Shown here: positions 782 to 11,118 of the stretch, piece after piece | Position numbering within the stretch: the first letter of the stretch is position 1 | Layout: every line of letters begins with the position of its first letter | Assembly (NCBI GenBank): GCA_020854825.1 | Contig: JAHKLY010000005.1 | Location: 1 to 52,833 of the forward strand | Length of the DNA stretch: 52,833 nt | DNA from: Candidatus Micrarchaeota archaeon | Lineage (GTDB): Archaea > Micrarchaeota > Micrarchaeia > Anstonellales > JAHKLY01 | Reading direction: 5' to 3' | The notes under the pieces: model-generated | What the model was told of the DNA's origin: nothing | The model's database searches: none | Seen by the model: the letters and a program-made list of their open reading frames with translations, nothing else | Made by a program: the position numbers and the translations under genes

Positions 782-1786
782 TCAAAAACGTATGAACATT
801 GCATCTCCAAATGAGTAAAACCTATATTTATACTTTATAGCGCTTTCATAAATATCGTGCCATTTATCTCCTATAAGAGAAGCGACTAATAAAAGCAAAC
901 TAGTGCGCGGAAGATGAAAATTAGTTATTAAACCATCAAAATTAAGATTAAACTTATAGCCTGGATAAACAAATAAAGAAGTTTCTTTAGCGCAAGCCTT
1001 AACTTTACCATTTTTTTGAGATGCACTTTCTAATGCACGTAATGATGTAGTACCAACTACATATAAAGCGCCTTTTCGTTTATTTATACTATCGGCTGTT
1101 TTTTTAGATATTTCAAACCATTCTGAATGCATTTTATATTTAGTATAATCTTCATCTCTTATTTCAGCAAAAGTACCTAATCCTACATGTAAACAAACTT
1201 TTTCAACATTAATTCCTTTTTCTTCTAGCCTATCAAGTAATGTTTTACTAAAATGTAATCCTGCAGTTGGTGCAGCAACTGATCCATCTTTAAAAGCAAA
1301 AACAGTTTGATACCTCTTTCTATCATAAGATTCATTATGTATATACCCTGGTAAAGTGAAATCTCCCTTTTGTTTAAGAACTTCTTCAATAGATTGATTA
1401 AAATTTAATAAAAAATGAAAATCAATTTTAGATACAATCTCTGCAATTACTCCGTCTTGAAAAAATAATTTATTACCAATTTGTGGATTTTTACATTTAA
1501 CAAACGCTTCATACTGTTTAGAAGATTTTTTATTTATTATAGTTATTGATACATGCCCCCCAGATTCCTTTTGTCCTTCTAATTTAGTATTGACTACTTT
1601 AGTTTCATTAACTACAAGTATATCTCCTTTTTTTAAATACTCAATAAGTTCAAAAAAGTTTCTATGGTTTATTTTACCCTCTTTAAAATCATAAATTAAC
1701 AAACGTGATTCATGTCTTTTATTAACTGGATTTTGCGCAATTAATTCTGAAGGCAAATTATAATAGTATTGATTTATTGATTTCAT
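782..1786 (-). CDS. queA: S-adenosylmethionine:tRNA ribosyltransferase-isomerase
   Basis: Motifs LPSELIAQ, RYQTVFA, GSVAAPTAGLHF, LHVGLGTF, VGTTSLRALES, TNFHLP, YRFYSFGDAM. Confidence 0.96.
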   Translation of the reverse strand: MKSINQYYYNLPSELIAQNPVNKRHESRLLIYDFKEGKINHRNFFELIEYLKKGDILVVNETKVVNTKLEGQKESGGHVSITIINKKSSKQYEAFVKCKNPQIGNKLFFQDGVIAEIVSKIDFHFLLNFNQSIEEVLKQKGDFTLPGYIHNESYDRKRYQTVFAFKDGSVAAPTAGLHFSKTLLDRLEEKGINVEKVCLHVGLGTFAEIRDEDYTKYKMHSEWFEISKKTADSINKRKGALYVVGTTSLRALESASQKNGKVKACAKETSLFVYPGYKFNLNFDGLITNFHLPRTSLLLLVASLIGDKWHDIYESAIKYKYRFYSFGDAMFIRF

Positions 1787-1907
1787 AATCTCACTTTTAA
1801 GAAAATTATACTAAAATAGACCCTTCAGAGTTTAAAAAGGTATATATACTAACCCCAATATGGATACCCTAGTATCTAGTAAAATAATATTAATAATAAA
1901 TACTAAT

Positions 1908-6382: not shown

Positions 6383-7255
6383 ATGGAGATATCAATAGTA
6401 CAAATAATAAAAAATAGTATAAATTTATTTAAAAAATATAAAAAACAAATAATTATGCCTTTTGTAATTATTTTTTTACTTTCATTAACTCTATCTGTCA
6501 TGAGTAATGATTTAAATAAAATGAATGAAGAAATAACAAATACTTCACAAACAAATCCAGATACTCTATCTGTCATGAGTAATGATTTAAATAAAATGAA
6601 TGAAGAAATAACAAATACTTCACAAACAAATCCAGATTTAGCAATATCAAGGATAGGAGAAGATTTAGGATTTTCAATTTTAATTATGATCTTAAGTATT
6701 ATTTTTGGATTTATAAATCAAATGCTTGAGTTCTCTGTATATACTCCAATACAAGAAACAATGAAAAAGACAAAAATAAGTAATTGGAAAACACATTTTA
6801 AAAAACAATTTATTAATACACTTAAACAACTTGTTATTTCTATAATTATATTTATAACTTTAATATTAGGAATCGTTTTAATACTCCTCGGAGCATTCCT
6901 TAATGATTTAATAACCTTTGGGATATTAGGAGGTATATGCATATTAATTTACTTAATCTTACTATTTGTAACAATGTTTTCAAGTTATTATATAGTACTT
7001 AAAAACTCAGGGATCACTAAATCAATTAACTTAAGCTATAAGACAGTAAAAAACAATTTTAAAATCTGCCTATCCTTTATACTAGTATGGGGACTAATAC
7101 TACTAACCTTGAGTTTACTGTATATAATTATAATATTTTTAACAGGAGAAATTCCAACCTATTTATATTATATATCTATCTTTATATCTGCTTTATTTAT
7201 TAATCCAATTCTATTAATCTCATATATTGGATTAGGGGATAAATTAGTAAAATAA
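6383..7255 (+). CDS. Multi-pass membrane protein
   Basis: 290 aa with about 6 hydrophobic helices; internal 25-aa tandem repeat. Confidence 0.8.
   Translation: MEISIVQIIKNSINLFKKYKKQIIMPFVIIFLLSLTLSVMSNDLNKMNEEITNTSQTNPDTLSVMSNDLNKMNEEITNTSQTNPDLAISRIGEDLGFSILIMILSIIFGFINQMLEFSVYTPIQETMKKTKISNWKTHFKKQFINTLKQLVISIIIFITLILGIVLILLGAFLNDLITFGILGGICILIYLILLFVTMFSSYYIVLKNSGITKSINLSYKTVKNNFKICLSFILVWGLILLTLSLLYIIIIFLTGEIPTYLYYISIFISALFINPILLISYIGLGDKLVK
6488..6637 (+). repeat. Exact 75-bp in-frame tandem duplication
   Basis: 6488-6562 is identical to 6563-6637 (TLSVMSNDLNKMNEEITNTSQTNPD twice). Confidence 0.95.
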
Positions 7256-8691: not shown

Positions 8692-9135
8692 ATGTATAAT
8701 ATAACTTTAAATAAAATAGAGAAAAAGTTTGATTATGTAGAACTTTTTCTTTATAATTCTTTTTCTATTTTTAAAACAAATAATACTAGAATCGCAGCTT
8801 CAAATTGTAAAAAAAATCAGATAATATATTTAGAAACATATGATCCTTCTATGGAGATTATTCAAAAAGCAAAGGAAAAAAAAAGTATATTTTTAATAAA
8901 TCTATTAGATATTATAAATGAGGAAGGATCAAATAGAAGTAAAACTATAAATAATATAAAATTATTTTTAAGATTATGTATAAAATACAAAGTTGAATTT
9001 ATAATGTGTTTTTTAGCTTCCAATGAATCAGAATTAAGAACATTAAAAGAAGGAATTGCGTTAGGTACGTTATTAGGTTTAAAACATAAACAAGCTAAAG
9101 ACGCATTTATAAAAATTAAAGATTTAAAGAAATAA
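8692..9135 (+). CDS. rnp3: Short RNase P protein Rpp30-like
   Basis: Lies between rpl15e and rnp2 (conserved order); ASNESELRT...LLGL C-terminal motif. Confidence 0.65.
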   Translation: MYNITLNKIEKKFDYVELFLYNSFSIFKTNNTRIAASNCKKNQIIYLETYDPSMEIIQKAKEKKSIFLINLLDIINEEGSNRSKTINNIKLFLRLCIKYKVEFIMCFLASNESELRTLKEGIALGTLLGLKHKQAKDAFIKIKDLKK

Positions 9136-9168
9136 TTTTGCTAAATCAAATTCATATAAGAGGATAAT

Positions 9169-9504
9169 ATGGGAATTAAACCAACAGTAAGAATGAAAAA
9201 AAGATATATTGCTTTTGAACTTATTGGAAAAGATGCAAATAATATAAATGAAACTGAAATCAAATATGCTTTTTATAAAATATTAAATCAATTATATGGA
9301 GAAATAGGTTTTGCTGATTTAGGTTTTAGATTAATTGAATTCAAACCAGAAACAAAAAAAGGGATAGTTCGTTTTAGAAGACAAAAATTAAATAAAGGAA
9401 TTGCTTGTTTTGCTTTTATTAAAAATATTGAAAAGTATGAAACACGTTTAAAACCTTTAAGTACAAGTGGAAGTTTAAAAAAATTAAGAGAAAGAATAAA
9501 TTAA
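9169..9504 (+). CDS. rnp2: RNase P protein Pop5
   Basis: PTVRMKKRYIAF, LYGEIG, GIVR, TSGSLKKL. Confidence 0.9.
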   Translation: MGIKPTVRMKKRYIAFELIGKDANNINETEIKYAFYKILNQLYGEIGFADLGFRLIEFKPETKKGIVRFRRQKLNKGIACFAFIKNIEKYETRLKPLSTSGSLKKLRERIN

Positions 9505-10699: not shown

Positions 10700-10909
10700 C
10701 GCCGAGGGAGGGATTTTCATACACCAAGTTTCTTTCTTGGTACAGCTTCTTTCTTTTTCCAAAGAAAGAAGGTGTTTGAACCCCCATGTCCGTGAAGACA
10801 CACGATTTCTTGTTTTGTTTTCTTTTCTTTGTTTAAACTTTCTCTTCTTTTTCAAAAGAAAAGAAAGGTTATTCCAGTCGTGCGCACTACCAGATTATGC
10901 GACCTCGGC
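10700..10909 (-). tRNA. tRNA-Ser(GGA) with two introns (37/38: 10807-10871, 65 nt; 59/60: 10714-10774, 61 nt)
   Basis: GCCGAGG/CCTCGGC acceptor stem; CACGA-CTGGAA|A-TCGTG anticodon arm; long variable arm; GGTTCAAA|TCCC T-arm; T-loop splice helix TTCA/TGAA. Confidence 0.92.
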
Positions 10910-11118
10910 ATTAATATGACGAGAATTACAAAACGAATGTTTTGTTTGACCTCGGCATCAATGTAATATATGACGAGGGATTTTCATGAAATGAAAACTG
11001 ACCTCGGCATTAATGTAATATATAACGAGGGATTTTCATGAAATGAAAACTGACCTCGGCATTAATGTAATATATGACGAGGGCTGTAAAAACAAAGTTT
11101 TTACTTAACCTCGGCATT
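10910..11118 (-). repeat. Four tandem hairpin units in the tRNA-Ser 5' leader, each repeating the tRNA 5' end
   Basis: ATGCCGAGGT recurs with the G1 equivalent at 10956, 11008, 11060 and 11115 (periods 47/52/52/55); each is followed by a hairpin and (C/T)CTCGT(C/T)AT. Confidence 0.92.

Follow-up and report, generated by a model that had tools for sequence, protein, structure and literature searches.

Tandem acceptor-stem-like hairpin units flanking tRNA genes in a Micrarchaeota lineage

The array upstream of tRNA-Ser(GGA)

We analysed the 52,833-nucleotide (nt) contig JAHKLY010000005.1 of a Candidatus Micrarchaeota archaeon (the window; source genome GCA_020854825.1, hereafter G000), in which four tandem hairpin units (u1 to u4; 10916-11117, minus strand) lie directly 5' of a tRNA-Ser(GGA) gene carrying two introns (Table 1). 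Each unit consists of ATGCCGAGGT, a few unpaired bases, an inner hairpin and the segment (C/T)CTCGT(C/T)AT. ATGCCGAGGT is an exact copy of positions -2 to +8 of tRNA-Ser(GGA), and the 3' arm of the unit is its near-complement. The three 11-nt linkers between units read ATATTACATT followed by A or G, and the last linker, next to the tRNA, is ATTA. Every unit is predicted to fold into an outer stem, an internal loop and a capped inner hairpin (z -4.15 to -5.27), and the 236-nt leader as a whole folds with a z of -6.04. The initial annotation had described four minus-strand units made of the tRNA -2 to 8 copy, its reverse complement with a constant mismatch, an internal hairpin and a linker; all of these are present, the inner hairpins are those it quoted, and its view that the units mimic the acceptor stem of the adjacent tRNA is supported.

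ATGCCGAGGT occurs exactly five times in the window, always at the array or tRNA-Ser(GGA) itself, and with up to one mismatch it has eight matches against 0.47 expected, a count reached in none of 100 shuffles. A repeat search of the window recovered five copies of GACCTCGGCATTAAT (plus strand) spaced by 47, 52, 52 and 55 nt, and Tandem Repeats Finder reported 10947-11083 as 2.6 copies of period 52 (96% matches, score 260). The 13-mer ATGAAAATCCCTC is common to u2, u3 and the T-loop intron/exon junction of the same tRNA (positions 10708, 10975 and 11027), so that the match to this junction remarked on earlier is real here, but it is weaker in the sister species. Small open reading frames starting at the ATG of each unit were dropped, their peptides being inconsistent by eye across units or genomes. 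Public short-read contigs, taken from four runs with the label sludge metagenome, support the tRNA, u4 and a portion of u3 before breaking within the repeat; in all four runs the break falls inside the array, and no long read extends across it. The unitig depth of u2/u3 is about 2.4x that of the flank in one run (X1) and 1.5x in another (X3).

Upstream of the outermost unit stands a TATA-like box, in agreement with the initial annotation (Table 1). The box belongs to a block together with TTTTTAAAGTCTTATT, and the same block precedes the array of the sister species; no such block is found next to the tRNA in either. The block is promoter-like and may act as a promoter. Since the array lies between this conserved block and the tRNA, co-transcription as a leader, as the initial annotation proposed, is plausible; the conserved block stands as observed, and transcription itself is what we infer from it.

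The window is A/T-rich (about 27-29% G+C) and includes an archaeal large subunit rRNA (Rfam); the source genome is archaeal, comprises 828 kb in seven contigs and has a completeness rating of 97.6%. Neighbours of the array encode EF-1alpha, ribosomal protein S10, a family-2 glycosyltransferase and the RNase P proteins Rpp30 and Pop5, a core-chromosome setting. tRNA-Ser(GGA) was parsed by eye, having been missed by ARAGORN and Rfam in scans of the window because of its introns; segments homologous to it are present in 34 of 41 related genomes. ARAGORN called no tRNA at all in the window and Rfam returned 20 matches in the genome at E up to 1, the small number detected by standard tools reflecting that most tRNA genes here carry one or more introns. 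These introns are built from hairpins of the CTTTCTTT...AAAGAAAG type, and the same modules recur in leaders and spacers (window 10700-10909 and 36764-37595; L013; L049). RNase P is complete in the genome, with the RNA and the proteins Rpp30, Pop5, Rpp29 and Rpp21. A long leader should therefore be removable and an unusual enzyme is not indicated, which rules out a minimal RNase P as the explanation of the array. On contig C4 the match to the RNase P RNA, just 210 nt long, is located about 330 nt upstream of tRNA-Met.

Table 1. Positions of the array, related units and associated genes in the window (MFE, minimum free energy, kcal/mol)
Feature	Position	Strand	Details
TATA-like TTTATATA	11147-11140	-	22 nt ahead of the A of the first ATGCCGAGGT
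Unit 1 (u1)	11117-11074	-	ATGCCGAGGT; inner hairpin GTAAAAAC-TTT-GTTTTTAC; 3' arm CCCTCGTCAT; MFE -13.6, z -4.15
Linker u1/u2	11073-11063	-	11 nt
Unit 2 (u2)	11062-11022	-	inner hairpin TTTTCAT-TTC-ATGAAAA; 3' arm CCCTCGTTAT; z -5.27
Linker u2/u3	11021-11011	-	11 nt
Unit 3 (u3)	11010-10970	-	like unit 2 except 3' arm CCCTCGTCAT; z -5.04
Linker u3/u4	10969-10959	-	11 nt
Unit 4 (u4), nearest the tRNA	10958-10916	-	inner hairpin ACAAAAC-ATTC-GTTTTGT; 3' arm TTCTCGTCAT; z -4.80
Linker u4/tRNA	10915-10912	-	ATTA, 4 nt; then AT, then tRNA G1 at 10909
tRNA-Ser(GGA)	10909 (G1) to 10700 (discriminator)	-	parsed by eye
tRNA-Ser(GGA) exons	about 10909-10872, 10806-10775, 10713-10700	-	parsed by eye
tRNA-Ser(GGA) introns		-	37/38, about 65 nt; 59/60, about 61 nt; parsed by eye
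5' unit of tRNA-Phe(GAA)	37602-37643	-	ATGCCGCGGT; TTTTTCAT-TTGT-ATGAAAA; CCGCTGCAT; mismatch at 3:70; z -4.11
tRNA-Phe(GAA)	37595-37454	-	
3' unit after tRNA-Phe	37400-37453	-	T-run/A-run hairpin; hairpin with the tRNA's last 7 nt (CGTGGCA); T-run
Two 3' units after tRNA-Gly(UCC)	37015-37122	-	tRNA 37265-37123; each unit ends GCCGCA, then T-run
Three 3' units after tRNA-Gly(GCC)	36604-36763	-	tRNA 36932-36764; Tandem Repeats Finder period 53, 2.9 copies
Rpp30 and Pop5 genes	8692-9504	+	about 1.4 kb from the tRNA-Ser leader array

Recurrence, pairing rules and turnover of the units

Acceptor-copying 5' units were found at four tRNAs of the same genome, each matching its own tRNA: four at Ser(GGA), one at Ser(UGA), one at Phe and two, with unrelated inner hairpins, at His. 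The tRNA-Phe unit shares its inner hairpin with the tRNA-Ser array, and its arms are those of tRNA-Phe. The initial annotation had named the presence of the pattern at other tRNA loci as a check, and other tRNAs and other genomes do carry it. It is far from universal within the genome: the tRNA-Asn of the window has no such units, and around Rfam or ARAGORN tRNA matches (some of them weak) no 9-nt direct repeats within 140 nt were found at 18 of 19 loci, tRNA-His being the exception. A genome-wide search for the pattern TTTCAT..ATGAAAAT gave five matches, four in tRNA-flank units and one apparently coding; this type of unit is thus confined to tRNA flanks and not dispersed in this genome. A second design occurs on the 3' side, after tRNA-Phe, tRNA-Gly(UCC) and tRNA-Gly(GCC) in the window and, on a different contig, after tRNA-Met. 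Here a T-run/A-run hairpin comes first, followed by a second hairpin that copies the last 5-7 nt of the tRNA, with the discriminator, in its 3' strand, and finally by a T-run; of 12 genomic matches to this pattern, 11 fall in two tRNA clusters. In the Phe/Gly/Gly cluster each 3' unit ends in GCA plus T4-T7, the last one ahead of the next tRNA being T4, and by sequence the window's 3' units fit the description of oligo-T terminators (a hairpin and a run of at least five T).

The outer arms co-vary across 14 units from six tRNA types and five genomes. In the alignment of these units, in which one row is misaligned by two columns and nine outer pairs were scored, the outer stem is paired in 83.3% of cells, compared with 75.6 +/- 1.6 for shuffles (0 of 500 attain the observed value), both-sided changes are seen in five of the nine pairs (4 of 500 shuffles), and controls with slid partners pair at 26-55%. 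The unpaired column is 2:71 in 11 rows and 3:70 in three by the tool's count, or 10 and four once the misaligned row is corrected by eye, so that each of the units shows a single non-pair, located at 2:71 or 3:70, which is two or three pairs inward of tRNA +1. The bases of this non-pair vary (C.U, U.U, G.A, C.A). The 3' arm tracks the complement of the unit's own 5' arm, leader bases included, and not the real 3' strand of the tRNA: the Phe unit has C where the tRNA has U69, and the His unit reads GTCAT where the tRNA reads GTCCT. Fold predictions for 21 single units (z -1.65 to -6.41) and for the cloverleaf unit of G019 described below all show the outer stem, with an internal loop leading to a capped inner hairpin. 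Seven G:U pairs appear in the sense-strand folds and, together with UUCG loops, these predicted pairs favour pairing in RNA of the tRNA sense. Most 5' units are predicted to pair positions -2/-1 with 73/74; the discriminator is free in the 3' units predicted for G159, a member of the order.

Comparison with G001, the sole other genome of the genus, reveals rapid turnover. There are four 5' units at Ser(GGA) in G000 and two in G001, one and none at Ser(UGA), and two and three at His, while the 3' units after Phe, Gly(UCC) and Gly(GCC) number one, two and three in G000 as against at least four, none and one in G001. The tRNA-Phe 5' unit has diverged with its pairing kept: the inner TTTTCAT/ATGAAAA of G000 is TTTTCAC/GTGAAAA in G001 and an outer G:C is A:U, the position of the non-pair being unmoved. 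At tRNA-Ser(GGA), u3 and its G001 counterpart uB are identical at 39 of 41 positions (linker, nine of 11), and intron 1 differs by five substitutions in 65 nt and one indel (about 92% identity). The inner hairpin of the tRNA-nearest unit has been replaced between the species (about 40% identity), and the G001 version resembles that of the outermost unit in G000, indicating that modules are shuffled between the constant segments. The T-loop intron of tRNA-Gly(UCC) in G001 is absent in G000 and homologous to the tRNA-Phe intron of G000, an intron gain or loss within the genus. Two adjacent G+C-rich hairpins upstream of tRNA-Ser(UGA), GCCCC-TGAAATAC-GGGGC and GCGCAACTCA...TGAGTTGCGC (G000:C2 about 800-860; L012 about 300-360), are kept in the sister species with the compensatory change GCTCC/GGAGC (L053 about 1770-1810, minus strand) and may represent a small structured RNA.

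Beyond the genus, the junction of CTCGTYAT, 2-30 nt and ATGCCGAGG occurs at 15 sites in six of the 176 genomes of the order, spread over four families, with no control matches; the sites precede tRNA-Ser(GGA/UGA/GCU/CGA) and tRNA-Met genes. The richest case is G159, with three 5' units that have identical arms, an identical 11-nt linker and three unrelated inner hairpins. This array stands in near-identical form before two different tRNA-Ser genes, which indicates gene conversion. All three G159 tRNA-Ser genes also have mirror-image 3' units, composed of GACGAGGGAG, a hairpin and the tRNA's final 11 nt, copied exactly. One other G159 tRNA, Leu-like in our reading, has repeats of 50 nt on its 5' side, yet another has a 3' repeat, and repeats were also flagged in this genome at L339, L340, L346 and L348. 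One of the tRNA-Ser 3' units holds a nested second hairpin-bearing segment (L342 1355-1450, minus strand), an arrangement suggestive of hairpin modules that insert into, or duplicate within, units. Single 5' units precede tRNA-Ser(CGA) in G082 and tRNA-Met in G007. In G019 there are two identical 117-nt units with three hairpins inside the same arms, a cloverleaf outline (z -7.74) and two C(UUCG)G tetraloops; this three-hairpin unit may have formed in a similar way to the nested G159 segment.

The negative searches delimit this distribution. The direct-repeat scan applied to the tRNA loci of G000 found no tRNA-end copies at 20 tRNA loci of the related A/T-rich genome G006. Outside the order, the junction search gave five single matches in 265 genomes of the phylum as against two control matches, and we judge the five to be chance because none continues into tRNA sequence. 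TTTCAT..ATGAAAAT has matches in 71 of the 176 genomes of the order; none of the 24 loci viewed is unit-like, all 24 share a conserved block in G+C-richer sequence that we take as coding, and these matches give no evidence of TTTCAT-type units outside the genus. The unit pattern proved too loose for broad genome and metagenome contig collections, with at least 120 single matches in each, and the genome-collection matches among those listed come from unrelated, mostly bacterial organisms. An Rfam search at E up to 5 (L001, L004, L071 and L007) gave no family, tRNA (RF00005) or ribozyme match on the units, the cloverleaf G019 unit included.

Several other structured or repeated sequences were recorded. 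Anticodon-loop introns of tRNA-Met contain TGATGA and CTGA, in the manner of box C/D small RNAs (G007 L320 1560-1610; L013 450-520). In G015 (L007 1345-1450) a four-way-junction structure with a 10-bp closing stem and no acceptor-stem mimicry lies 10-15 nt upstream of a tRNA-Ser and adjoins a 5S rRNA gene. The window contains a perfect 75-nt tandem duplication (6488-6637), and Tandem Repeats Finder detected a 66-nt repeat forming long arrays in opposite orientation at two contig ends (C5:1-745 and C6:15-869).

Origin and possible role of the units

We favour, tentatively and at somewhat short of an even chance, the reading that the units are co-transcribed, self-folding pseudo-acceptor hairpins derived from the tRNA's own ends, kept matched to them and removed by RNase P or tRNase Z. 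The tRNA-Ser precursor would then have a transcribed 5' leader that includes the array, and each unit would be a local pseudo-acceptor hairpin formed by the copied 5' end (-2 to +8), its complement and a stable variable hairpin cap. Units would be born from a tRNA end and held identical to it by recombination or gene conversion, and arrays would grow, shrink and shuffle through unequal recombination between the constant arm-plus-linker segments. Copied strand and complement would neutralise each other inside the unit, and because each copied strand pairs within its own unit the true acceptor stem could fold undisturbed. The non-pair at 2:71/3:70 adjoins the point (-2/-1, G1) at which the inner arm might invade the true acceptor helix, and would weaken that arm as a partner of the real 5' strand relative to the real 3' strand. 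RNase P would remove the leader, possibly cutting each unit, and the mirror-image 3' units would be lost through 3' end processing. Recurrence at four tRNAs and in six genomes, the fold, covariation, compensatory changes and turnover all count for this reading, as do the 3' arms that track the unit's own 5' arm, the signs of sense-strand pairing, the conserved promoter-like block, the complete RNase P and the clean control genome G006; the G+C-rich G159 array contains no A/T-rich box.

A number of observations weigh on the other side. Public sequencing runs list no RNA run with the array locus. Runs of T5 or T6 lie on the sense strand in u1 and in the Phe and Ser(UGA) units, at which archaeal transcription could terminate ahead of the tRNA. 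The window's 3' units sit behind T5-7 runs, look like duplicated terminator modules and may be untranscribed, pointing to an origin at the DNA level, and those of G159 mirror the 5' units down to their A-rich loops, most simply explained as an inverted DNA copy. In the minimum free energy fold of the whole G159 precursor, leader arms pair with trailer arms and the units are not all self-contained, while u1 folds slightly better in antisense (-15.2 against -13.6 kcal/mol). The predicted pairing of -2/-1 with 73/74 in 5' units is unfavourable for RNase P cleavage within the unit. The restriction of the Ser-type junction to six of 176 genomes means that the units are dispensable. Conversely, the CCTCGTCAT arm is identical in four families, hard to explain if units are merely tolerated, which suggests a positive function that the favoured reading does not name; the predicted fold of the G159 tRNA-Ser(GCU) precursor points the same way.

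A serious if less probable competitor is that the units play no part as RNA and are tandem palindromic repeats of the DNA itself, made by replication slippage, template switching and unequal recombination where tRNA genes end in inverted repeats, and persisting as harmless sequence in flanks that are trimmed or never transcribed. The rapid change of copy number and order between two congeneric species, the perfect identity of some neighbours in the repeat search (the 2 x 117 nt of G019; u2/u3), the near-identical G159 arrays, the mirroring of 5' by 3' units with loop composition included, the T-runs ahead of the window's 3' units and the patchy occurrence across the order would all follow readily. 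Such a process accounts poorly for arms and a mismatch that are identical in four families when the intervening linkers and inner hairpins share nothing, for single units that keep CCTCGTCAT with no second copy to convert against, for a non-pair that stays at 2:71/3:70 through base changes among C.U, G.A, C.A and U.U, or for UUCG tetraloops and G:U pairs on the sense strand; flanking direct repeats moreover ease deletion, and useless units should therefore vanish. The conserved arm and mismatch position are points in favour of functional RNA devices, whether released minihelices serving as decoys or pseudo-substrates for acceptor-reading enzymes or toxins, or leader-trailer processing-stem modules whose pairing code would stay orthogonal to the acceptor stem through a single altered base pair. 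Each unit does repeat the exact context of a cleavage site (leader plus 5' end, or 3' end plus trailer), and a hairpin derived from a bacterial pre-tRNA-Gly is described as an efficiently cleaved substrate of protein-only RNase P (PMC12439589). In G159 the leader arm CCCTCGTC and trailer arm GACGAGGG are perfectly complementary, and its tRNA-Ser(GCU) precursor is predicted to form a correct cloverleaf on the CCCTCGTC/GACGAGGG helix (z -6.61). Only G159 has both partners, the tRNA-Ser of the window being without a complementary trailer, and paired -2/-1 positions in 5' units, loops unlike a T-loop, rarity among relatives and the lack of a listed RNA run with the locus all make such devices unlikely. 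We hold with equal reserve a bolder proposal, that these are lineage-specific programmable pseudo-acceptor modules in tRNA precursors with the 2:71/3:70 non-pair as an anti-determinant. In cis such modules could act as insulators or as an orthogonal leader-trailer stem timing real acceptor-stem formation and trimming; after release they could be minihelix decoys for RNase P, tRNase Z, the CCA-adding enzyme, synthetases, tRNA-targeting toxins or viral factors. The initial annotation had likewise suggested released minihelix RNAs or decoys, and competitors for the acceptor strand, as possible roles.

Mobile or adaptive elements fit less well. tRNA genes are common integration targets, and the junctions nearest the tRNA form 7-bp imperfect inverted arms around 7-9 nt spacers; with the patchy distribution this recalls footprints or decoy copies of a site-specific recombination (attachment, att) site at the tRNA 5' end, the arm-linker-arm being duplicated at each integration. 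We regard this as improbable: the other linkers are 11-22 nt, arms that differ per tRNA type would each need a separate recombinase specificity, the neighbourhood is core chromosome (EF-1alpha, S10, RNase P proteins), the stretches between units contain no integrated element (no search for integrase genes was made), and the hairpin nature of every insert would go unexplained. The initial annotation also raised scars of repeated insertion, for which no support was found: no match to Y1 transposase (PF01797) was found in the 97.6% complete genome, TnpB (PF07282) stayed below the cut-off with 16.8 bits, and the sequence of the arms follows that of the tRNA at each locus. Its remark that the alternation of repeat and variable segments recalls CRISPR holds for layout only, as the would-be spacers are self-complementary hairpins of 19-27 nt, u2 and u3 are alike, and Cas1 (PF01867) has no match in the same genome. 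Imperfect palindromes with a fixed mismatch likewise resemble hairpins bound by HUH enzymes, as in repetitive extragenic palindromes (REP), bacterial interspersed mosaic elements (BIME) or IS200/IS605-type elements; without a Y1 (HUH) transposase or a REP-associated tyrosine transposase (RAYT) and with copies restricted to tRNA flanks instead of dispersed intergenically, an element of either the CRISPR or the REP kind is scarcely credible, and both were rejected.

Relation to known systems and significance

Among the closest known systems are tRNA-like processing signals, such as the t-elements of plant mitochondria and a tRNA-like element next to the 5S rRNA of haloarchaea, and minihelices; the units resemble them in having an acceptor-like helix and a second capped helix in a precursor beside a processing site. 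In predicted folds they display the acceptor-like helix of about 7 bp and capped second helix of RNase P/tRNase Z minihelix substrates, and most 5' units lack the single-stranded -1 and free discriminator of such substrates. They differ in copying the neighbouring tRNA's own end, in tandem and with an obligatory 2:71/3:70 non-pair, and in having no T-loop and paired -2/-1 positions in 5' units, features known here from sequence and predicted folds. In Escherichia coli the tyrT trailer contains tandem repeats, every one of which opens with the 3' end of tRNA-Tyr in copy, similarly placing tandem tRNA-terminus copies in a gene flank, probably via unequal recombination; our units are 40-55 nt hairpins that include the complementary strand, and occur also on the 5' side and at several tRNAs and in several families. 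CRISPR arrays are comparable in alternating a constant, partly palindromic segment (about 31 nt here) with variable ones, but here the constant segment is the end of a tRNA gene, the variable segments are hairpins and Cas1 was not found. Integron attC sites, with R''/L''...L'/R' cores, a GTTRRRY consensus and the IntI integrase, are alike in shape only, both having two stems, a spacer that is unpaired and a tip that varies; the arms of the units end in CAT and not in an attC core, no integrase search having been made.

Leader-trailer processing stems are described for archaeal rRNA and for permuted or split tRNA precursors (PMC3978253, PMC7714728), and the complementary G159 arms, predicted to stack under the acceptor stem, are similar to the stems in these accounts; they differ in that the predicted folds show no bulge-helix-bulge and that the window's tRNA-Ser has no trailer partner. 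A bulge-helix-bulge site was rejected by inspection, with no dedicated search, as the folds have, in place of two 3-nt bulges on opposite strands with a 4-bp helix between them, a 1x1 mismatch and an internal loop that is asymmetric. The tRNA-linked short tandem repeats of Entamoeba, characterised as microsatellite-like (PMC2652664), also evolve fast between or beside tRNA genes, but acceptor mimicry or hairpin design forms no part of that characterisation. A full-text search of the published literature, supplementary tables not being covered, returned no description of acceptor-mimic repeats flanking tRNA genes. The feature is real, recurrent, structured and rule-bound, a relative of tRNA-flank repeats or of tRNA-like precursor elements, and none of the systems compared unites all of its traits: the exact tRNA-end copy, the near-complement whose non-pair is fixed, the variable capped hairpin, the tandem arrangement and the occurrence of mirror forms on both flanks.

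In practical terms, short-read assemblies break at the arrays, and the arrays and introns together conceal tRNA genes from the usual finders. Were they merely neutral repeats, they would still attest to a specific mutational process at tRNA gene ends. If transcribed, they would provide a natural gene that carries folded copies of its product's ends in its own precursor, under a simple non-interference rule of exact copy, near-complement and one fixed non-pair by the entry point, and their natural variants would make it possible to test directly how long-range competition in RNA folding plays out and which substrates archaeal RNase P and tRNase Z accept. The arrays also bear on the evolution of heavily interrupted tRNA genes in small-genome archaea, the introns, leaders and trailers of these genes being built here of shuffling hairpin modules.

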